Below the pieces are notes generated by a model that saw only the letters and a program-made list of their open reading frames with translations, was not told the origin of the DNA and did not search any database. From Parcubacteria group bacterium GW2011_GWA2_42_14 (GTDB lineage: Bacteria; Patescibacteriota; Minisyncoccia; Sungbacterales; GWA2-42-14): DNA of 64,000 bases. Numbering within the stretch: position 1 is the first letter of the stretch; the number at the start of each line of letters is the position of its first letter. A program made the position numbers and the translations under genes. The stretch is taken from the NCBI GenBank assembly GCA_000998135.1, contig LCCV01000003.1, positions 6,392 through 70,391 of the forward strand, in the 5' to 3' direction. Positions 2 to 43,247 of this stretch are shown here, in pieces.

Positions 2-259
2 ATCATTGAAGCAAGCGACCCAGAAAAAGCCGAGCAAGGAATCGCCAAGTTGGTTCTCACCTTGATAGAGTTGATCCGGCAACTTTTGGAAAGAGAGGCG
101 GTGAGAAGGGTCGATACCGGTACGCTTTCCGAGACGGAAATTCAGAAATTGGGACTAACCTTCAAGGCGTTGGAGAAAAAGATTCAAGAAATGAAAGCGG
201 TTTTCGGCATTAAAGAGGAACTGAATTTGGAGTTGGGGCCGCTGGGCAATCTCCTCTGA
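2..259 (+). CDS. gvpK: Gas vesicle protein GvpK (5' end truncated by the window edge)
   Basis: The reading frame is open from nt 2. The translation ...LVLTLIELIRQLLEREAVRRVDTG.LSE.E..KLGL......NLELGPLGNLL fits the GvpK family pattern as I recall it. Confidence 0.7.
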   Translation: MIEASDPEKAEQGIAKLVLTLIELIRQLLEREAVRRVDTGTLSETEIQKLGLTFKALEKKIQEMKAVFGIKEELNLELGPLGNLL

Positions 260-293: not shown

Positions 294-566
294 ATGACAA
301 ACGAACAAAAGAAAAAATTATCAGACCAAGAGATGACGAAGAAATCTCAGCAAGCGACCTTGCGTATGGCACAGGAATGGCAAAAGTCGGAAGACACAAT
401 CCACCACGCGCTCAAGTCGTATGAGGATGTGATTCAGGTTGACCCTGAAAGCGATGAGGCTGGTGAGGCGCGTGAGGCGCTCGTGAAAATTGCCGAGGAT
501 TGGGATAAAAAAGGTCGAAAATATGCCGCCGCGAAACTGTATAAGAAATTAATGGTCGGCAGATAA
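294..566 (+). CDS. hypothetical protein in the gvp cluster (helical, TPR-like pair)
   Basis: 90-aa ORF lying between gvpK and gvpA/J. No recognisable motif. Confidence 0.4.
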   Translation: MTNEQKKKLSDQEMTKKSQQATLRMAQEWQKSEDTIHHALKSYEDVIQVDPESDEAGEAREALVKIAEDWDKKGRKYAAAKLYKKLMVGR

Positions 567-583
567 GCACTTGATAAAAATTT

Positions 584-898
584 ATGGATAGACAAAAAGT
601 AGGAACAATGTCTCAGACAACCAACCTCGCCGACATTTTAGAGCGGGTTTTGGATAAGGGCATTGTCATTGCCGGCGACATCCGGGTGCAATTGGCGGAC
701 GTCGAGCTTTTGAATATCAAGATTCGACTTCTCATTGCCTCGGTAGAGAAAGCCAAAGAAATCGGAATCAGTTGGTGGGAGCATGACTCATATCTTTCGC
801 CAAAAGCAAAAGAGTTTGAATTGTCCAAAGAAAATACCAAACTGGTTAAGCGTATAGAATCTTTAGAGGACAAACTGAAGGTCAAGCGCGGGAAGTAA
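584..898 (+). CDS. gvpJ: Gas vesicle structural protein, GvpA/GvpJ family (GvpJ-like with a C-terminal coiled-coil extension)
   Basis: LADILERVLDKGIVIAGDIRVQLADVELLNIKIRLLIASVEKAKEIG matches the conserved GvpA core ([29 protein letters not shown]...IASVETY). The extra ~40 aa at the C-terminus is typical of GvpJ. Confidence 0.85.
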   Translation: MDRQKVGTMSQTTNLADILERVLDKGIVIAGDIRVQLADVELLNIKIRLLIASVEKAKEIGISWWEHDSYLSPKAKEFELSKENTKLVKRIESLEDKLKVKRGK

Positions 899-906
899 AC
901 TTATTT

Positions 907-1428
907 ATGCCAAGCACGATTGAACAAGTCAAAGAGGTAATTTTGAAGCGCGGAGGCAGGGCGTCTAAACATCAGATCGCGCGAGAGCTCAAAATAAGTT
1001 CGGATTACGCGGGCCTTGTTTTAGGCGAGTTGAAAAGAAAAGAAGAAGTTGCTTTTTCCGGCGGATTATATGTCTTGACTCCCGGCAAAAGGGGTGTTAA
1101 TCCAGAGAAAACAGAGGAAATCGTTACTGCGCCAGCCGAAAAACGACCTGCCCGTCGATCAAGGAGACCCAAGCGAACAAAGAAGGCCCCGAAGGAAAGC
1201 AAGCTTCCAACGGGGCAGGCAAAAATCCAGAAAGTTGAGAAAAACCAGCCTCAACCCCTTGTCGCCGCGTTAGGGATCAGCAAGTCATTGACAAGGACTC
1301 TGGAGAAAGCGGGATACGCCACGATAGAATCTATTGCGGAAGCCCCTATTAATAAATTGATGGCAGACGCAAAACTCAAACTTAGCGCCGCCGCTCGATT
1401 GATCAACCAAGCAAGAAAAACAAAGTGA
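907..1428 (+). CDS. winged-helix plus helix-hairpin-helix DNA-binding protein, hypothetical
   Basis: The N-terminus (HQIARELKISSDYAGLVLGELKRK) looks like a wHTH. A basic linker follows, then an HhH-like tail (LGISKSLTRTLEKAGYATIESIAEAP). Confidence 0.5.
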   Translation: MPSTIEQVKEVILKRGGRASKHQIARELKISSDYAGLVLGELKRKEEVAFSGGLYVLTPGKRGVNPEKTEEIVTAPAEKRPARRSRRPKRTKKAPKESKLPTGQAKIQKVEKNQPQPLVAALGISKSLTRTLEKAGYATIESIAEAPINKLMADAKLKLSAAARLINQARKTK

Positions 1429-1469: not shown

Positions 1470-2588
1470 ATGACTGAAGAAAGAAAATACATATATTCAA
1501 TAATTAATAACCCGAAAGAGATGCGGGTCTCAGACGCCTCTCGTCTACCGGGAGATCTATTTGGCATTAACAATCGCGATATAACTTTTATCTCCTATAG
1601 AGATATATCAGCTGCGGTTAGCAATATCCATCTTATTAATTTTGACAAGTTTGATAAAAAAGAACTCCATCAATTAATTGCGGCGCATGATCAGGTAAAT
1701 GTTAGTCTTATGAAGAAACACGATATTATTCCAATGAGATTTGGAATGATCGCAGAAAGCGCGGAAGAAATTCGCAATATTTTAGCCAAAGCATATATAC
1801 AATTTAAAACCGCTCTCGAAAGAATTGCCGGGAAAGCCGAATTCATCGTTCAAGTATTTTGGAACGAAAAGAATATACTTGAAAAGATAGTTCAGGAAAA
1901 TATTGAAATCCAAAAGTTAAAAAAGGATGTAGAGTCAAAGGGCAAGATTTTAGGGTTTTCATCCAAAATAAAATTAGGTAAGCGCATATTTGAGGGATTA
2001 GAGTCATGCCGCAAAGAATATACGGAAGGCATTTTAAGTAACCTCGCAACCAGCTTTCCAAATTTTAGCGCCGGCAAACTTCTCGATGCAAACAAAGAAA
2101 GCGCTGCTAACGAGACAAAAAAAGAAATGATTATGAACTATTCGTTTTTGATAGGCGCGACAGAAGAATCAGCTCTATCATTTAGATTGAATCAATTAGC
2201 TGAAAAATATAAAGATGAGATTAAGTTTAAATATATCGGGCCTATGGCGCCTTACAGCTTCGCTATTATTAATCTCAGTTTGGGAAACTTTGATTTAGTT
2301 GATAATGCCAGAAGGACTTTTGGGCTCGGAGAATCGGCGGCATTTTCAGAAATAAAAAAGATTTACTATAAGTTGGCTGGACAGCATCACCCAGACAAAC
2401 AAGCTTTTACAAAAGATCGGGTTATATTAGAGGGAGCAGAAAAGAAGATGAAAGACATAATAACAGCCAATGAGGTTTTAACTATTTATTGCAAGCATTA
2501 TCTTTCGGCTCTCGCGCCTGAGAAAGAGCAGCTTTGCTCTTTTAGAAAAGAAGATGTAGAAGATTCAATTATTGTAAAAACAAAGTGA
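1470..2588 (+). CDS. gvpF: Gas vesicle protein GvpF/GvpL family with a C-terminal J-domain-like (HPD) extension
   Basis: YIYSIIN...IPMRFGMIAESAEEIRNIL...AEFIVQVFWNEK matches the GvpF/L pattern (YLYGI..LPLRFG..VKVFWD). The tail contains YYKLAGQHHPDK, an HPD-loop-like motif. Confidence 0.8.
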   Translation: MTEERKYIYSIINNPKEMRVSDASRLPGDLFGINNRDITFISYRDISAAVSNIHLINFDKFDKKELHQLIAAHDQVNVSLMKKHDIIPMRFGMIAESAEEIRNILAKAYIQFKTALERIAGKAEFIVQVFWNEKNILEKIVQENIEIQKLKKDVESKGKILGFSSKIKLGKRIFEGLESCRKEYTEGILSNLATSFPNFSAGKLLDANKESAANETKKEMIMNYSFLIGATEESALSFRLNQLAEKYKDEIKFKYIGPMAPYSFAIINLSLGNFDLVDNARRTFGLGESAAFSEIKKIYYKLAGQHHPDKQAFTKDRVILEGAEKKMKDIITANEVLTIYCKHYLSALAPEKEQLCSFRKEDVEDSIIVKTK

Positions 2589-2591
2589 TTT

Positions 2592-2750
2592 ATGGCAATG
2601 GCAAGCATAGATACAAGCGAGTTGGAATATTTTAAATCATGCAGAGATAAACTGCGGGATATTGGCGATATTTTGAAAGACAAGAACGATGAAAAAGAAT
2701 TATCGATTGAGGAAAAACTAAGAGAAATAAAAAAGATTCTTAAAGGATGA
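2592..2750 (+). CDS. small helical protein (52 aa), hypothetical
   Basis: ORF MAMASIDTSELEYFKSCRDKLRDIGDIL... Its start region duplicates the sequence at 1421-1458. Confidence 0.3.
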   Translation: MAMASIDTSELEYFKSCRDKLRDIGDILKDKNDEKELSIEEKLREIKKILKG

Positions 2751-2850
2751 TTATACTTCGTATAATCTTCGTTCGCTCGGAAATCATAAAATAAAATTTT
2801 TGATTTCGTTCGCTCACTTGATTATAAGCATGGAGGGATTATGAATTTAT

Positions 2851-4350
2851 ATGGCGACCCCTAAAAATATTATGCCGCAGGGCGGCAATCTACCTGAGTC
2901 CACATTTGGGGCCCGCATTAAAGTTGTCGGCGTAGGCGGTTCCGGCTCAAATGCGGTTGATCACATGATAAACTCTGGCGTGCGCGGGGTTGATTTTATT
3001 GTGGTTAATTGCGATACCCAGGATCTTCATCATAATAAGGCGGAGAAAAAAATACATATTGGCAAAAACTTGACCCGCGGACTTGGAGCCGGGATGAACC
3101 CCGAGGTCGGTAGGCGCGCGGCTGAGGAAACCAAAAACGAGCTTCAGGACGCGCTGAAGGGCGCGGATATGGTATTTATTACCTGCGGATTGGGCGGAGG
3201 AACCGGTACTGGCGCGTCCCCGATTATTGCCGAAATAGCGAGAACCCAAGGGGCTCTTACCCTCGCGGTGGTGACAAAACCTTTTTCTTTTGAGGGGGCT
3301 GAGCGATCAAGAATTGCCGAGGATGGTTTGAGAGAACTTATAGGGGTAGTTGACACCGTTATCGTCATTCCTAACGACCGACTTTTGGAAATCAGCGATA
3401 AAAAAACCACCCTTCAAAATGCTTTCGCGCTCTGCGATGATGTCTTGAAAAACGCGGTTCAGGGCATCTCCGAACTCATCGTAATGCCAGGCATTGTTAA
3501 TCTCGACTTTGCCGATGTAAAGACAATTATGGGAGACGCGGGCCCAGCCATCATGGGAATAGGATCGGCCCAGGGAGACGAACGCGCGGTTGAGGCGGCT
3601 CGAAAAGCAATCAGTTCTCCTTTGCTTGATATTTCCATTAACGGCGCAAGAGGGATTCTTTTTGCGGTCGCCGGCGGAGAAGATTTGACGCTTCATGAAA
3701 TCAACGAAGCCGCAAAGGTTATTACAGAATCAGCCGACCCGCAGGCCAAAATCATATTTGGAGCTTTTCGAGATGATGCTATTAATAAAGGTTCGATAAA
3801 GATTACCGTCATTGCGGCCGGCTTCGCCAATCCGGGCCCAAACATTATTGCCTCGCCGCGGCCAAGAATTTTTGAGAACCAGGAGACAGCGGAAGAAAAA
3901 GGAGATGATGACGATATGGATAAGCCCGCTTTTTTGCGTAGAGGAAAATCGCCGCCTTCATCTCCGCAGGAAGGAGCTCGCCACGAAGGACACAAAAGAA
4001 AAAACGAGAATCCTCACAGAATTTCTCTTAATGCTTCTGTGGCGGGAGATATCATAAGGAAACTCCCATCAAATAATTTTATAGAAAATTATGGAATCAA
4101 AGACGAGGCATCCCGCGGCATAGATCTGCGGGATTTTAATGATAATAAAGACCGCGCCTCAACTCCCGCAAACCGATATGAAAATTTTCGTATTAACGCG
4201 AAAAAGACGCTCATCGCAACTTTAGCTATTTTTAAAAAGGCAGGGGAAATTTTTCTTATGCTTATTTTTGGGATAATAACCATCGTAGCTCTTGGGTTTT
4301 ACAGAATTTACAGTTTAATTAAGAAGCGGTTTCAACGAACGATTTATTAA
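2851..4350 (+). CDS. ftsZ: Cell division GTPase FtsZ with an extra C-terminal extension ending in a transmembrane helix
   Basis: VVGVGGSGSNAV, the GGGTGTGASP tubulin signature and NLDFADVKTIM are present. The conserved C-terminal peptide DKPAFLRRGK is followed by ~130 aa ending in the hydrophobic segment LIATLAIFKKAGEIFLMLIFGIITIVALGFY. Confidence 0.95.
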   Translation: MATPKNIMPQGGNLPESTFGARIKVVGVGGSGSNAVDHMINSGVRGVDFIVVNCDTQDLHHNKAEKKIHIGKNLTRGLGAGMNPEVGRRAAEETKNELQDALKGADMVFITCGLGGGTGTGASPIIAEIARTQGALTLAVVTKPFSFEGAERSRIAEDGLRELIGVVDTVIVIPNDRLLEISDKKTTLQNAFALCDDVLKNAVQGISELIVMPGIVNLDFADVKTIMGDAGPAIMGIGSAQGDERAVEAARKAISSPLLDISINGARGILFAVAGGEDLTLHEINEAAKVITESADPQAKIIFGAFRDDAINKGSIKITVIAAGFANPGPNIIASPRPRIFENQETAEEKGDDDDMDKPAFLRRGKSPPSSPQEGARHEGHKRKNENPHRISLNASVAGDIIRKLPSNNFIENYGIKDEASRGIDLRDFNDNKDRASTPANRYENFRINAKKTLIATLAIFKKAGEIFLMLIFGIITIVALGFYRIYSLIKKRFQRTIY

Positions 4351-4534
4351 AAAGAAAGCAAAAAAGAAATCCAAAAAAATGATGCTTTGCGACTGCGGCT
4401 CCGACAAACCGGCAATGGAATGTTGTAAGGCAGAAAAGTAATGGCGATCGCGGCATTATTATTTTTGATACACACTAACGAATTATTCGAGGAGAGCCGC
4501 CTTTCGTTAAAAGATTTTTAGCATTACAATAATG

Positions 4535-4640
4535 ATTGCCATGTCCCATCTTCGGGTGGCATGGCACAACCCTGCTTTTACGAGCAGGGACGCGCCATCC
4601 GGGATGTTCCAACCCCGGGTGGCTTTGTTTAAAGAGAAAA
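4535..4640. ncRNA. unclassified structured RNA candidate (three consecutive strong hairpins)
   Basis: Hairpin stems gccatg...catggc, ccctgc-ttttacga-gcaggg and gccatccggg-atgttccaac-cccgggtggc (10 bp with one G-U). The region has no ORF. Confidence 0.25.
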
Positions 4641-5117
4641 GTCATCTAAAAAGAAAATAAAAAAGAAATTAAATAATTCTAAAGGCCATTATTGACCAGT
4701 GAGACGACTTGTTGTAATATAGAGAGACCCTGAAGTTATCCACTTCTGCCAGCTTGACTGGATTTTGTGGAAAACATAAGGGTTGTGCTGAAGGCAAGAT
4801 CGAAGCCTTCCGCACCTACAAAACGAAAGATATCGTCCGTCCCCCAAATGGGGAACGAATTCCGCGAAAGCGGATGGAGTTGGAACACGGACTTCGAATC
4901 CGTACCCCGTTTAAAAAAGGCGGGGTAAAGTATCTATAATGGAAGATTTTTTATGTTATTATAAAGTTATCCGTAATAAATAAGCGGAAGAAGGGTAAAG
5001 GCAATCATGCCTAAAACCGCAAAAACAGTTATAACTATCCAGATGGCGTTAATAAGTTTTTTCTGTTTTTTGAACATATCTAAAGTATAGTTAAAATAAG
5101 AGCTGAAGTCAATTTGG

Positions 5118-5270
5118 TTAGATGGCCCCAGCCCCAATTTTGCAGTTTATGCGTTTGGCGGCGCGCTTCGCGCTATGAGGGATTGGCTATTCGCCACCGT
5201 GCGCCGCAAATTATCAAAAATACTCCTCAAAAGAAAAAGTTTTAGAGGTGGCTTTGGGCAAAATTGGGGC
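5118..5270. ncRNA. unclassified structured element (long-range pairing plus a GC-rich internal helix)
   Basis: cccagccccaattttgca (5121-5140) is complementary to ggcaaaattggggcggggt (5249-5267). The nested helix ggcggcgcgc/gcgccgc is internal. No ORF. The element lies upstream of the ftsB-like gene. Confidence 0.2.
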
Positions 5271-5327
5271 GGGGTTCTCATGATTTCAGCTAAAAATTAT
5301 TCGCTCCACTCTAATTTTTAGGAAATC

Positions 5328-5705
5328 ATGGAAGAACAATCTTTTTTTCAAAAATTTCTTAGGTCCCCATTCACGCTTATCGGCGGCTTGATTTTGTTTT
5401 TAATGATTTTGCATAACATTTGGGGAATAACGGAGCGGCTTCTTTCTTTTTATTACGAAAAAAGGGGATTGGAAACAAAAATCGCCGAATTGCAAAAAAG
5501 GAACGAAGATATAAAAAAAGAAATTAATTATACGGAAACCGAAGGTTTTTTAGAAAGGGAGGGGAAAGCGCGTCTTAATTTAAAAAAACCCGGCGAAGAA
5601 GTGGCGGTAATAGTGGAAGAGGAAGAAGTGATGCGGGTCGAAGGAGTGGAACAGGATTTTTGGAATAAGATGTTTAGTTCAGTTCTTTCGCTTTTGAAGT
5701 TCTGA
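5328..5705 (+). CDS. Septum formation initiator family protein (FtsB/DivIC-like)
   Basis: An N-terminal TM segment is followed by a coiled coil (KIAELQKRNEDIKKEINY) and the ARLNLKKPGEEV motif typical of FtsB/DivIC. Confidence 0.6.
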   Translation: MEEQSFFQKFLRSPFTLIGGLILFLMILHNIWGITERLLSFYYEKRGLETKIAELQKRNEDIKKEINYTETEGFLEREGKARLNLKKPGEEVAVIVEEEEVMRVEGVEQDFWNKMFSSVLSLLKF

Positions 5706-9709: not shown

Positions 9710-10636
9710 TCATTTAACCAAAACATCCCAGTGGCTTCCTTCGTCTGCGTAAACAGCTCCGGTCGGGCTTCTGTATTGTTTGGCGCCATCGCTACGGGTG
9801 CCGATAAAGCTGTAATTTGACGTAATGTATGAGTTCAGCGCCGGGTTTTTGCCAGCGTCAAATTTAAAACCTGCCGGATGGCTGAAAGGGCCGGTTGCGT
9901 GGCTGTTGATTTCAGAGCCGCCGGTAATGTTAATAGAGCAACCGCACTTTTGTTTAATGTTATATATTTCTTCAATTGTCGCGGGTCTAAGTCCGCCAAC
10001 ATTAGTACAGCCGCTTTGCGTTCCAGTATATGGATCGCATTTCGGATTATTTATGGTAATTCCTTTGCTTGTTAAGGAGGCGCGTATCGTAGCTTCATTG
10101 GCTTCTGCCGAAGGGCATATGGTAGATCCTTCTATGGGGCAGGAACCTACGGCCGTGCAAAGTCCAAATCCTGGTTTTGTTGATGAACAAAAACAAAGAC
10201 TTGTTCCGCAGTTCCAGGTGGTAAGGGGCGGAGGCGGTGGAGGAGGCGGAGGCGGTGGAGGAGGAGGCGGGGGCGGAGGCGGTGGAGGAGGAGGCGGAGG
10301 AGGAGGAGGCTCAACGACTTCAACCGGTACGCAATATGTTTCTATAAAATTCGGCAAGATTAATAGAACAGTTAAGATAAGAATAGTATAAAAAATAATT
10401 TTGCGGGTTTTGGTAATGGTGTTTGGATTTCCGCTGCCGGTAATATATAGAAAAGCGGCGGCCAGTATCATAATGACAGCGATTGCGGCTCCGATTATTC
10501 CCGATGCTTTTGCCAATATCAGGAGTAGTACGCATATTTGTGATGTGGTGAAAGGATTTTGGATTATTTGTCCGAGAACGGGCAATGGAAAAATTAACGT
10601 TGATATGCCGATGATAATTAGTGATGGATAGATCAT
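9710..10636 (-). CDS. Membrane protein: TrbC/VirB2-like pilin N-terminus, ~40-residue polyproline stalk and a Cys-rich C-terminal domain
   Basis: The hydrophobic N-terminus ...AKASGIIGAAIAVIMILAAAFLYITG resembles a VirB2 two-helix pilin. It is followed by P(x~40) and a domain with many Cys. Confidence 0.5.
   Translation of the reverse strand: MIYPSLIIIGISTLIFPLPVLGQIIQNPFTTSQICVLLLILAKASGIIGAAIAVIMILAAAFLYITGSGNPNTITKTRKIIFYTILILTVLLILPNFIETYCVPVEVVEPPPPPPPPPPPPPPPPPPPPPPPPPPPPLTTWNCGTSLCFCSSTKPGFGLCTAVGSCPIEGSTICPSAEANEATIRASLTSKGITINNPKCDPYTGTQSGCTNVGGLRPATIEEIYNIKQKCGCSINITGGSEINSHATGPFSHPAGFKFDAGKNPALNSYITSNYSFIGTRSDGAKQYRSPTGAVYADEGSHWDVLVK
10214..10310 (-). repeat. low-complexity (ggN)n / (ccN)n tract encoding polyproline
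   Basis: ggcggaggcggtggaggagg... run on the + strand. It encodes P-runs in the minus-strand protein. Confidence 0.9.
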
Positions 10637-41313: not shown

Positions 41314-41802
41314 ATGCATAAAAAGGAGAATAATTTCGCTTTTATAGATAATACCAATGTGCATAAGGGCATCCAGATGCTCGGGTGGAAATTAGATTTA
41401 GCGAAATTTAGGAAACTGCTTATGGAGCGATACGGTGTTACCCGTGCATATATGTTTATAGGGTATCTTGCCGGTAATCAAGACATGTATCGGGATTTTC
41501 AGAATATGGGATATACGTTGATTTTCAAACCGACGCTCCTTAACAAAAACGGTGAAGTAAAAGGCAATTGTGATGCGGAGTTAGTGTTGCAAGTCATGAT
41601 TGACCTTAGTGAATATGGGAAAGCCGTGATTGTTACGGGTGACGGCGATTTTCAATGCCTCGTGAAGCATTTGAGAAAAATCGGCAAATTGGGCTATGTC
41701 GTTAGCCCAAACATAAAATGGTGCTCAATTTTGTTAAAACGCGAGGCGAGAAGTAACCACGTATTTATTGAAGAAATGAGGTCTAGGTTGGAGTTGAAAT
41801 GA
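41314..41802 (+). CDS. NYN-domain (LabA-like) protein inserted in the ATP synthase operon
   Basis: FIDNTNV...AVIVTGDGDF is the NYN/LabA signature. Confidence 0.7.
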   Translation: MHKKENNFAFIDNTNVHKGIQMLGWKLDLAKFRKLLMERYGVTRAYMFIGYLAGNQDMYRDFQNMGYTLIFKPTLLNKNGEVKGNCDAELVLQVMIDLSEYGKAVIVTGDGDFQCLVKHLRKIGKLGYVVSPNIKWCSILLKREARSNHVFIEEMRSRLELK

Positions 41803-42830: not shown

Positions 42831-43247
42831 ATGAACAAAGTTAAAGATTTTTTATATGAAAGAGAATCGTATGAAATTCGTGGCGCCATTTTTGAAGTTT
42901 GGAAAAACTTTAGGGGAGTTTTTAAGGAAAAGATAATTGAGAATGCCCTGAAGAAAGAATTGAGGTATAGAGGATTTATTGTAGAATCACAGAAGAAAAT
43001 AGACATTTACTATAAAGGCGAGAAGGTTGACAATTATACTCCAGATATTATTGTTAATAATTCCATTCTTATGGAATTAAAATCGAAGTCATTTTTAACC
43101 AAAGAAGACGAAAGGCAATTTTGGTATTATTTACGAGGAAGCCAGTACATATTAGGATTTTTAGTTAACTTCGGTTCAAAAGAAATAGAAATAAGGAGGA
43201 GAATTTATGATAAGGCCAGAGAGCAATATAAAGAAATTAGCGTTTAA
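42831..43247 (+). CDS. GxxExxY / PD-(D/E)XK (PDDEXK_3-like) family protein inserted between atpH and atpA
   Basis: ESYEIRGAIFEVWKNFRGVFKEKIIENAL...IYYKGEKVDNYTPDIIVNNSILMELKSK...LGFLVNFG matches this family as I recall it. It is flanked by tacgctga / tcagcgta repeats. Confidence 0.7.
   Translation: MNKVKDFLYERESYEIRGAIFEVWKNFRGVFKEKIIENALKKELRYRGFIVESQKKIDIYYKGEKVDNYTPDIIVNNSILMELKSKSFLTKEDERQFWYYLRGSQYILGFLVNFGSKEIEIRRRIYDKAREQYKEISV

Follow-up and report, generated by a model that had tools for sequence, protein, structure and literature searches.

An FtsZ protein with a predicted C-terminal membrane anchor, encoded at the end of a gas-vesicle gene cluster of a Patescibacteria genome

The DNA analyzed here, referred to as the window, is a stretch of 64,000 nucleotides from Parcubacteria group bacterium GW2011_GWA2_42_14 (assembly GCA_000998135.1, contig LCCV01000003.1, positions 6,392 to 70,391 of the forward strand). 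Near its beginning it carries a cluster of gas-vesicle (gvp) genes, and the last gene of this cluster is an ftsZ gene (2851..4350) encoding a protein of 499 amino acids, the C-terminal tail of which is predicted to be a membrane anchor. All coordinates refer to the window, and genes are on the plus strand unless stated otherwise. The ftsZ open reading frame (ORF) starts with ATG, and the sequence GGAGGG is located 13 nt upstream of the start. The ATG start is supported, since the N-terminal sequence MATPKNIMPQ recurs in the homologue P0012 (81% identical).

The N-terminal part of the protein is a complete FtsZ core. The Tubulin/FtsZ GTPase domain with the motif GGGTGTG covers amino acids 22-182 (2914..3396; Pfam PF00091, E = 1.4e-48), and the FtsZ_C domain covers amino acids 231-325 (3541..3825; PF12327, E = 9.2e-32). 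With the NCBIfam ftsZ equivalog model TIGR00065 the protein scored 411.7 bits at a cut-off of 295.2. GGGTGTG and the T7 synergy loop, N217-x-D219-x-x-D222, were invariant in an alignment of 18 sequences (alignment A1); the residues N-x-D-x-x-D of this loop are required for GTP hydrolysis within the polymer. A Pfam search of the whole protein gave matches to Tubulin and FtsZ_C only, and homology to any described Gvp family was not found. By every sequence criterion tested the protein belongs to the FtsZ family, and the canonical core noticed in the initial annotation of this DNA was confirmed.

Behind the core the protein is unusual. The conserved C-terminal peptide (CTP) of FtsZ, DMDKPAFLRRGK, which follows the pattern D-x-PAF[LM]RR, was located at amino acids 355-366 (3913..3948) and is therefore internal to the protein. 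It is followed by a tail of 133 residues (amino acids 367-499), for which Pfam gave no match even at E<=10. AlphaFold2, run on the alignment, produced a confident FtsZ core including FtsZ_C, a disordered region from amino acid 333 to 438 (pLDDT <50), and one continuous helix from amino acid 439 to 498 (pLDDT 63-85); the model contained no extra globular domain beyond the FtsZ core. Within the disordered part of the tail, some 70 residues long, a linear motif, F-[LI]-E-N-Y ... R ... [RW]-D-F, was recognized at amino acids 410-430 (4078..4140), and its R and D-F residues were invariant in the tail alignment (alignment A2). The helix includes a hydrophobic, predicted membrane-spanning segment of 18 amino acids, IFLMLIFGIITIVALGFY (amino acids 467-484, 4249..4302). 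The Kyte-Doolittle (KD) maximum of the whole protein, calculated over 19 residues, was 2.36 and fell on amino acids 465-483, and the unweighted sum of the Hessa dG values over IFLMLIFGIITIVALGF amounted to -3.9 kcal/mol. The protein ends in a basic amphipathic stretch, RIYSLIKKRFQRTIY, with a net charge of +5 (amino acids 485-499, 4303..4347). In the model, the tail is thus a disordered tether that ends in a hydrophobic helix.

The same architecture was found in twelve further homologues with overall identities of 59-74%. The order of elements is an acidic linker, the CTP, a variable basic stretch, the F-[LI]-E-N-Y...R...[RW]-D-F motif, a KK-x-G-E motif, the hydrophobic segment and the basic amphipathic end. 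The CTP is kept, at an internal position, in 11 of the 13 tailed proteins. A hydrophobic segment occurred at the matching place in all 13 tails, with KD values between 1.6 and 3.0 and a negative Hessa sum in 12 of them, and the segment following it comprised 14-30 residues with a net charge of +1 to +7. The FtsZ of the window has a single C-terminal hydrophobic helix of transmembrane length; its N-terminus is the FtsZ core, and a signal peptide is lacking. The conserved helix predicts direct membrane attachment of FtsZ. In this respect the initial annotation, which had described a conserved CTP and an extension of about 130 residues with a hydrophobic and basic end, and had predicted from these a directly membrane-anchored FtsZ, agreed well with the results. 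Both the membrane insertion of the helix and its topology are read from sequence. A sortase or exosortase sorting signal, which also consists of a motif, a hydrophobic segment and a basic end, was considered for the tail and was rejected because of the missing signal peptide and the cytoplasmic FtsZ core.

A sequencing or assembly frameshift could in principle have joined ftsZ to a small downstream membrane ORF, a concern already raised in the initial annotation. That frameshifts do happen at this spot in low-coverage assemblies is illustrated by locus L093, a 1.2-kb Logan contig of low coverage, in which (positions 1-761) the tail is an ORF of its own (P0123, 105 amino acids) in another frame than ftsZ; the two overlap by 43 nt close to a run of C residues. 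This split, whether it arose in assembly or is a natural variant, is the reverse of the feared fusion artefact. A protein identical to the window FtsZ is encoded by the same uninterrupted ORF on two other assemblies made by different pipelines (L006 and L007, the latter a scaffold from the Rifle aquifer), and the fused architecture is retained in the homologues named above. When a profile of the tail was searched against 1.84 billion cluster representatives, only four matches were obtained, three of which resembled pieces of FtsZ tails, while the fourth was the split ORF of L093; the representatives stem from clustering at 50%, so that full-length tailed proteins are merged with ordinary FtsZ. 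A fusion artefact is therefore extremely improbable, and that worry was laid to rest. As far as the sequences in this search go, the tail is confined to one clade of FtsZ proteins, referred to below as gvp-type FtsZ, and a free-standing source family was not found among the representatives.

The genes upstream of ftsZ belong to the gas-vesicle cluster. The window begins within a GvpK-like gene (50..259; Pfam GvpK, E = 1.6e-24), the C-terminal part of a GvpJ/K fusion, the counterpart of which in L006 encodes a 217-amino-acid Gas_vesicle+GvpK product. It is followed by a conserved ORF of 90 amino acids (294..566), which had no significant Pfam match but occurs at the same position in L092, L001, L090, L091 and L002 with 57-79% identity, and by a gene for a GvpA/J-family gas vesicle protein of 104 amino acids (584..898; Pfam Gas_vesicle, E = 5.9e-17), present in all related loci with 71-89% identity. 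The next gene (907..1428) encodes a protein of 173 amino acids that matches a helix-hairpin-helix family weakly (HHH_5, E = 0.003, short of the Pfam cut-off) and has counterparts in the same place in L090 and L092 (62-64%). A GvpF/L protein fused to a DnaJ (J) domain is encoded at 1470..2588 (GvpL_GvpF, E = 8.9e-52; DnaJ, E = 3.3e-08), and the same fusion was found in L001, L003, L088, L090 and L091. Directly 5' of ftsZ lies a conserved ORF of 52 amino acids (MAMASIDTSELEYFKSCRDKLRDI...EEKLREIKKILKG; 2592..2750), which is 77-83% identical to ORFs in L090 (7735-7896), L092 (5731-5889) and L001 (about 9838-10003). Its product is predicted to be helical and charged and had no significant match in Pfam; it is a candidate partner of the gvp-type FtsZ.

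To judge how constant this arrangement is, every long contig retrievable for close relatives of the window FtsZ was compared, giving a set of 13 related loci (the window, L001-L007 and L088-L092). In all 13 the gvp-type ftsZ was the last gene of a gvp cluster with gvp genes immediately upstream, tblastn matches included. The spacing is tight in several of them: in L001 the 52-amino-acid ORF and ftsZ share an ATGA stop/start overlap (TGA over ATG), in L003 the codons of the upstream gene and ftsZ are adjacent (about 1 nt), and in L002 the distance is 14 nt. Downstream of ftsZ the genes differ. A DivIC/FtsB-like gene (5328..5705; Pfam DivIC, E = 2.2e-08) is located 1 kb 3' of ftsZ in the window and also follows in L007, which derives from the same organism, but it is absent downstream in L001, L088 and L090. 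FtsA is encoded there in L003 and L090, a CtpB-like peptidase in L088, and unknown genes in L001. As the gvp side is conserved and the downstream genes vary, ftsZ travels with the gvp cluster and not with the chromosomal backbone. The gene is presumably co-transcribed and co-expressed with the gvp genes.

About 160 ordinary ftsZ loci, taken from the matches listed in scans of genome and metagenome contigs, served as a control. Among these matches the scans returned housekeeping FtsZ proteins with at most 67% identity to the window FtsZ; ftsA was directly 5' of ftsZ in most of the loci, and gvp genes were present at none. The ftsZ gene of the window stands in neither housekeeping context, ftsA-ftsZ or the dcw cluster; it is the final gene of an organelle cluster. 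FtsA, SepF, FtsQ and Mur proteins were absent from the 56 ORFs scanned in the 64-kb window, and tblastn with an FtsA query gave no match there either. The statements that ftsZ follows gas-vesicle genes (GvpK, GvpA/J and GvpF/L-DnaJ) and that ftsA, ftsQ and mur genes do not flank it were thus correct.

The picture implied by the initial annotation is that of a sole housekeeping FtsZ, self-tethered by its helix; taken further, FtsA, ZipA and SepF would be dispensable and the neighborhood of gvp genes would be without functional meaning. Such a view agrees with the canonical core and its high equivalog score, with the lack of ftsA and sepF in 64 kb and with the nearby DivIC gene. In addition, bacteria of the candidate phyla radiation (CPR) have small genomes, and two ftsZ genes would be costly. 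However, synteny was conserved on the gvp side only, and 64 kb represent less than 10% of a CPR genome.

The relation to housekeeping genes could be followed more closely in Candidatus Azambacteria. A search with the gvp-linked FtsA yielded a small group of 400-amino-acid proteins at 83-100% identity and a large group of 404-406 amino acids at 65-78%, annotated as Candidatus Azambacteria, before identities dropped to 47% or less. The large group belongs to a housekeeping locus of its own with the gene order hisS-HIT-S21-yqeY-ybeY-ftsA-ftsZ-comEC (L174, on a 280-kb contig, and L176-178 from Rifle). Between housekeeping loci the identities were 82% for FtsA and 83% for the FtsZ core. Between gvp-type and housekeeping proteins FtsA was 73-74% identical, while the FtsZ core reached only 62-65%, the same distance as that between gvp-type FtsZ and any other Patescibacteria FtsZ (58-67%, among the matches listed). 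Since about 78-80% would be expected for an orthologue, the gvp-type FtsZ has the appearance of a paralogue or xenologue; it is more diverged than its FtsA partner predicts.

Both types seem to occur together in single genomes. Protein accessions are issued consecutively within one genome submission. The gvp-type pair MDP3004382.1 (FtsA) and MDP3004383.1 (FtsZ) is 18 numbers away from P0267 (MDP3004401.1), a fragment of a housekeeping-type FtsA that is 87-98% identical to the housekeeping group and 75-77% to the gvp type. The MDP30043xx-44xx proteins almost certainly come from one Azambacteria metagenome-assembled genome (MAG). In GCA_026397285.1 the gvp-type FtsZ P0019 (MCX6813540.1) and the housekeeping-type FtsA P0255 (MCX6813950.1) are 410 numbers apart and plausibly derive from one MAG. 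The genome to which the window belongs would likewise encode a housekeeping FtsZ, and the gvp-type FtsZ is probably not that protein. The implied notion of a division FtsZ located near gvp genes by chance is not supported, in view of the linkage in all 13 loci, the variable downstream genes and the separate ftsA-ftsZ locus of Azambacteria.

The C-terminal ends of gvp-type FtsZ proteins fall into four states. P0019 and P0016 have the CTP only; P0043 (332 amino acids), P0033, P0040, P0038 and P0012/P0031 have no CTP; the window protein and ten others possess CTP, tail and helix; P0045 and P0047 have tail and helix without a CTP. Where the downstream region of tail-less genes was visible, the 400-amino-acid FtsA came next in the order ftsZ-ftsA (L003-5 and L090, and P0245/P0130 by adjacent accessions); this FtsA ends in an amphipathic helix of the type ..IIRWLKNFIP. 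Downstream of tailed genes (window/L007 and L001) FtsA was not found. L088 has neither a tail nor a downstream FtsA. Because tail-less genes are followed by FtsA and tailed ones are not, helix and FtsA look like alternative tethers. Though indirect, this alternation argues coherently for a tethering function of the helix. The resemblance of the terminal tail peptide ..IIRNWFQRMIY to the end of this FtsA raised the idea that the tail was derived from the FtsA C-terminus, but it was not supported by hhalign (probability 0.2%).

In a neighbor-joining tree of the core all gvp-type FtsZ proteins formed one clade, apart from the Azambacteria housekeeping FtsZ. The FtsA-linked forms were confined to a single sub-clade, and tailed forms were distributed over at least five branches including the deepest. 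Given the homology of the tails, the common ancestor of the clade probably had one, which was repeatedly lost and seems to have been replaced in one lineage by an FtsA copy. On contig JAPLVE010000049.1 of the Azambacteria MAG GCA_026397285.1 the full 400-amino-acid FtsA follows ftsZ (L003, 11153-12355), and a 248-amino-acid C-terminal FtsA fragment (P0223; L179, 10001-10747), 80% identical to the gvp-type and 76-78% to the housekeeping FtsA, is located just outside the start of the cluster. The two FtsA sequences are inverted relative to each other and bracket the gvp and ftsZ genes, which suggests a rearrangement or duplication of ftsA during assembly or insertion of the cluster.

These states also bear on the proposal that the window protein is the only FtsZ of its cell and tethers itself without FtsA or ZipA. 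The distribution of FtsA, downstream of tail-less and not of tailed genes, gives indirect support to self-tethering. The CTP, however, is strongly conserved in 11 of the 13 tailed proteins. Cells with tailed FtsZ therefore probably retain a partner that binds it, which argues against the claim that FtsA is not needed. Several members of the clade lack the CTP altogether, and a role as sole division FtsZ is hard to reconcile with that. Taken with the diverged FtsZ core, the distinct housekeeping locus and the housekeeping-type FtsA at neighboring accessions, this makes it unlikely that the window protein is a sole, self-tethered housekeeping FtsZ.

The regions flanking ftsZ were compared separately. 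Between the 52-amino-acid ORF and the ribosome-binding site of ftsZ the window contains a 69-bp lineage-specific insertion (2756..2824), which was absent from L090, L092 and L001 in alignment A3 and is flanked by a 7-bp direct repeat, GATTATA (2749-2755 and 2820-2826). The insertion looks like the trace left by a small element that was mobile or duplicated. Within it the direct repeat TTCGTTCGCTC is present twice (2768-2778 and 2805-2815); it was found only in L006 and L007, which have the same sequence as the window, and was absent from other lineages. The initial annotation had assigned ftsZ a promoter-like sequence of its own, TTGATT-16-TTATAA, besides this repeat. While the repeat was verified, the promoter was not called by a consensus scan, and its -35 box lies within the lineage-specific insertion. 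The promoter may still fire, but it does not represent a conserved control element.

On the 3' side, a 20-codon ORF, MMLCDCGSDKPAMECCKAEK, directly follows ftsZ (4379-4441). It has a C-x-C-G-S-x-K...CC pattern, which resembles the SEC-C zinc-binding motif, although Pfam gave no match in support even at E<=10. The remaining stretch of about 890 bp up to divIC (4442-5327) contains short overlapping ORFs only; one of these, at 4967-5137 on the minus strand, encodes 56 amino acids with a hydrophobic segment. Scans of the 1 kb behind ftsZ detected neither a tRNA nor an Rfam match at E<=1.

Related clusters encode additional proteins of interest. A volactin-like actin (Volactin, PF25216) is encoded in L003 (4104-5147) and L088 (4043-5152), and a CDC48-like double AAA ATPase in L003 (19-2151), L088 (1-2101) and L090 (4061-6214). 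An ArsA/CbiA-type (ArsA/ParA-like) ATPase and HSP20 are also among the genes of Patescibacteria gvp clusters. ArsA homologues in gvp operons have been known before (PMC2963123). Between the window and L088 the identities of IscS (45%) and NifU (40%) were lower than those of FtsZ (77%) and GvpA (71%). This hints at transfer of the cluster, but carries little weight as the orthology of IscS and NifU is uncertain.

The reading towards which we lean, with moderate confidence, is that the window protein is an accessory FtsZ paralogue of the gvp operon with a built-in membrane anchor, characteristic of a clade of Patescibacteria that comprises Candidatus Azambacteria and relatives. From the sequences we infer the following cellular role. 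With its intact GTPase core the protein would polymerize like FtsZ, and its own C-terminal hydrophobic helix would fix it to the cytoplasmic membrane. Gas vesicles are described as protein-only shells in two reports (PMC9994262, PMC10903477); as they offer no other bilayer, the helix would have to sit in the cytoplasmic membrane. About 110 disordered residues with two docking peptides, the CTP and FLENY...RDF, would join core and anchor. FtsZ would be made together with the Gvp proteins, and a membrane-bound filament scaffold would be active when the predicted gas vesicles fill the very small cells. Vesicles might be held or partitioned by the scaffold, or constriction might be adapted to their presence. 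Sister lineages might achieve the same with a tail-less gvp-type FtsZ and a dedicated FtsA copy, helix and FtsA being interchangeable tethers.

Several observations weigh against an accessory, membrane-anchored FtsZ. The hydrophobic segment is flanked by basic residues on either side (+2 before and +5 after it), so that a classical tail-anchored topology is not clearly favored by the positive-inside rule. The variants P0017 and P0020 are devoid of the hydrophobic segment, yet they keep a terminal peptide similar to ..IIRNWFQRMIY. The co-occurrence with housekeeping-type FtsA was deduced from the proximity of accessions in fragmented MAGs of tail-less relatives, and bins can be contaminated. 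The core of the gvp-type FtsZ is not degenerate (412 bits with the ftsZ equivalog model) and could still serve division, and the DivIC/FtsB gene 1 kb 3' of ftsZ in the window fits such a function as well.

The main functional rival likewise starts from a second FtsZ, but one that acts on division and never touches the vesicles. The FtsZ of the gvp operon would co-polymerize with the housekeeping FtsZ and alter the attachment of the Z ring, making it permanent through the helix or weakening it where the CTP is missing; division would be delayed or reshaped while rigid vesicles occupy the cell. Consistent with this, the core shares 60-65% identity with housekeeping FtsZ and has all polymerization motifs intact, and the clade exhibits CTP, no-CTP and helix states, as would be expected of an effect exerted via mixed polymers. 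FtsZ without a CTP is dominant-negative in model bacteria. Co-polymerization is hypothetical, however, and the FLENY...RDF motif and the dedicated FtsA suggest specific partners instead of simple poisoning. That the same clusters encode the volactin-like actin and the ArsA/ParA-like ATPase speaks for an apparatus that handles organelles, and altogether a mere modulator of division appears quite unlikely.

The accessory, membrane-anchored FtsZ of the gvp operon may be part of such an apparatus. It is tentatively conceivable that the gvp operons of CPR bacteria encode a dedicated gas-vesicle cytoskeleton, consisting of FtsZ with its own helix or a private FtsA, the volactin-like actin and the ArsA/ParA-like ATPase, which would serve to position the vesicles, template them or partition them in cells hardly larger than the vesicles themselves. 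At its boldest, the idea would have the hydrophobic helix insert into the wall of the nascent vesicle and not into the cell membrane. A cytoskeletal partner of gas vesicles was not found in the full-text literature searched.

The closest known parallel is provided by magnetosomes, where the mamXY operon of Magnetospirillum ends with an FtsZ-like gene (PMC3847676). Its product FtsZm, like the protein of the window, is an extra FtsZ paralogue encoded last in an organelle cluster besides a housekeeping FtsZ, a co-existence that is presumed for the genome of the window. FtsZm lacks the C-terminal region. This truncated form resembles the CTP-less relatives P0043 (332 amino acids), P0033, P0040 and P0012, whereas the window protein keeps linker and CTP and adds the tail of 133 amino acids. 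Further differences are that gas vesicles are protein shells and not membrane vesicles, that the phylum belongs to the CPR, and that some relatives have a dedicated FtsA.

With the canonical system, in which FtsZ is bound by FtsA (via a C-terminal amphipathic helix), ZipA or SepF, the protein shares the core, the CTP of the type D-x-PAF-L-R-R and the principle of a polymer attached to the membrane by a flexible linker; an amphipathic C-terminal helix is present in the FtsA of the clade, too. The predicted tether of the window protein, in contrast, is part of the FtsZ polypeptide, the order is ftsZ-ftsA where FtsA is present, and the context is neither dcw nor ftsA-ftsZ. To our knowledge, all FtsZ proteins studied need a separate protein (FtsA, ZipA, SepF or others) to reach the membrane, and direct tethering has been shown with engineered fusions only. 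FtsZ-mts, an FtsZ fused to a membrane-targeting helix by Osawa, Anderson and Erickson in 2008, reportedly needs neither FtsA nor ZipA to bind directly to membranes. Its natural counterpart would be the window protein, which differs by a segment of transmembrane length instead of an amphipathic helix only and by the retained CTP. In bacterial tail-anchored proteins a single hydrophobic helix is located within the last 35 or so residues, a signal peptide is missing, and a large N-terminal domain is cytoplasmic. The window FtsZ has the same layout, but the strongly basic segment of 14-30 residues behind the helix in the tailed proteins is unusual for crossing a membrane.

A second, strongly divergent FtsZ outside the dcw cluster, branching with Verrucomicrobiota, has been described in some CPR genomes (PMC9871819). 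Those copies and the gvp-type ones are both extra and not part of dcw, but the gvp-type copy is canonical in sequence, and the terms 'gas vesicle' and 'transmembrane' do not occur in that paper. The searchable full-text literature yielded no description of a naturally occurring FtsZ that has a transmembrane segment, of gvp clusters containing ftsZ, or of gas vesicles or their gene clusters in Azambacteria or CPR bacteria.

The rest of the 64-kb window is rich in housekeeping genes (thrS, dnaE, rnhB, rpmF, nusB, rnc, ftsH, smc, atp genes and rpoB), and neither a tRNA gene nor an Rfam family at the gathering threshold was found between positions 1 and 64000. The genes of the F-type ATP synthase are interspersed with an NYN-domain gene (41314-41802) and a gene for a PD-(D/E)XK nuclease (PDDEXK_3; 42831-43247), resulting in the order a, b, NYN, delta, PDDEXK_3, alpha, gamma, beta, an odd break in a conserved operon.

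If an accessory FtsZ with its own anchor is confirmed, the natural built-in helix on the one hand and the private FtsA of sister lineages on the other would be an evolutionary demonstration that the membrane tether of FtsZ is a swappable module, and the protein would offer a simple one-protein system for reconstitution. It would also be the first protein of the tubulin family tied to gas vesicles and, after the magnetosomes, the second example in which the gene cluster of a prokaryotic organelle has recruited a copy of FtsZ. Genome-reduced CPR bacteria would then invest in a buoyancy cluster of about 15 genes that includes cytoskeletal genes of its own.

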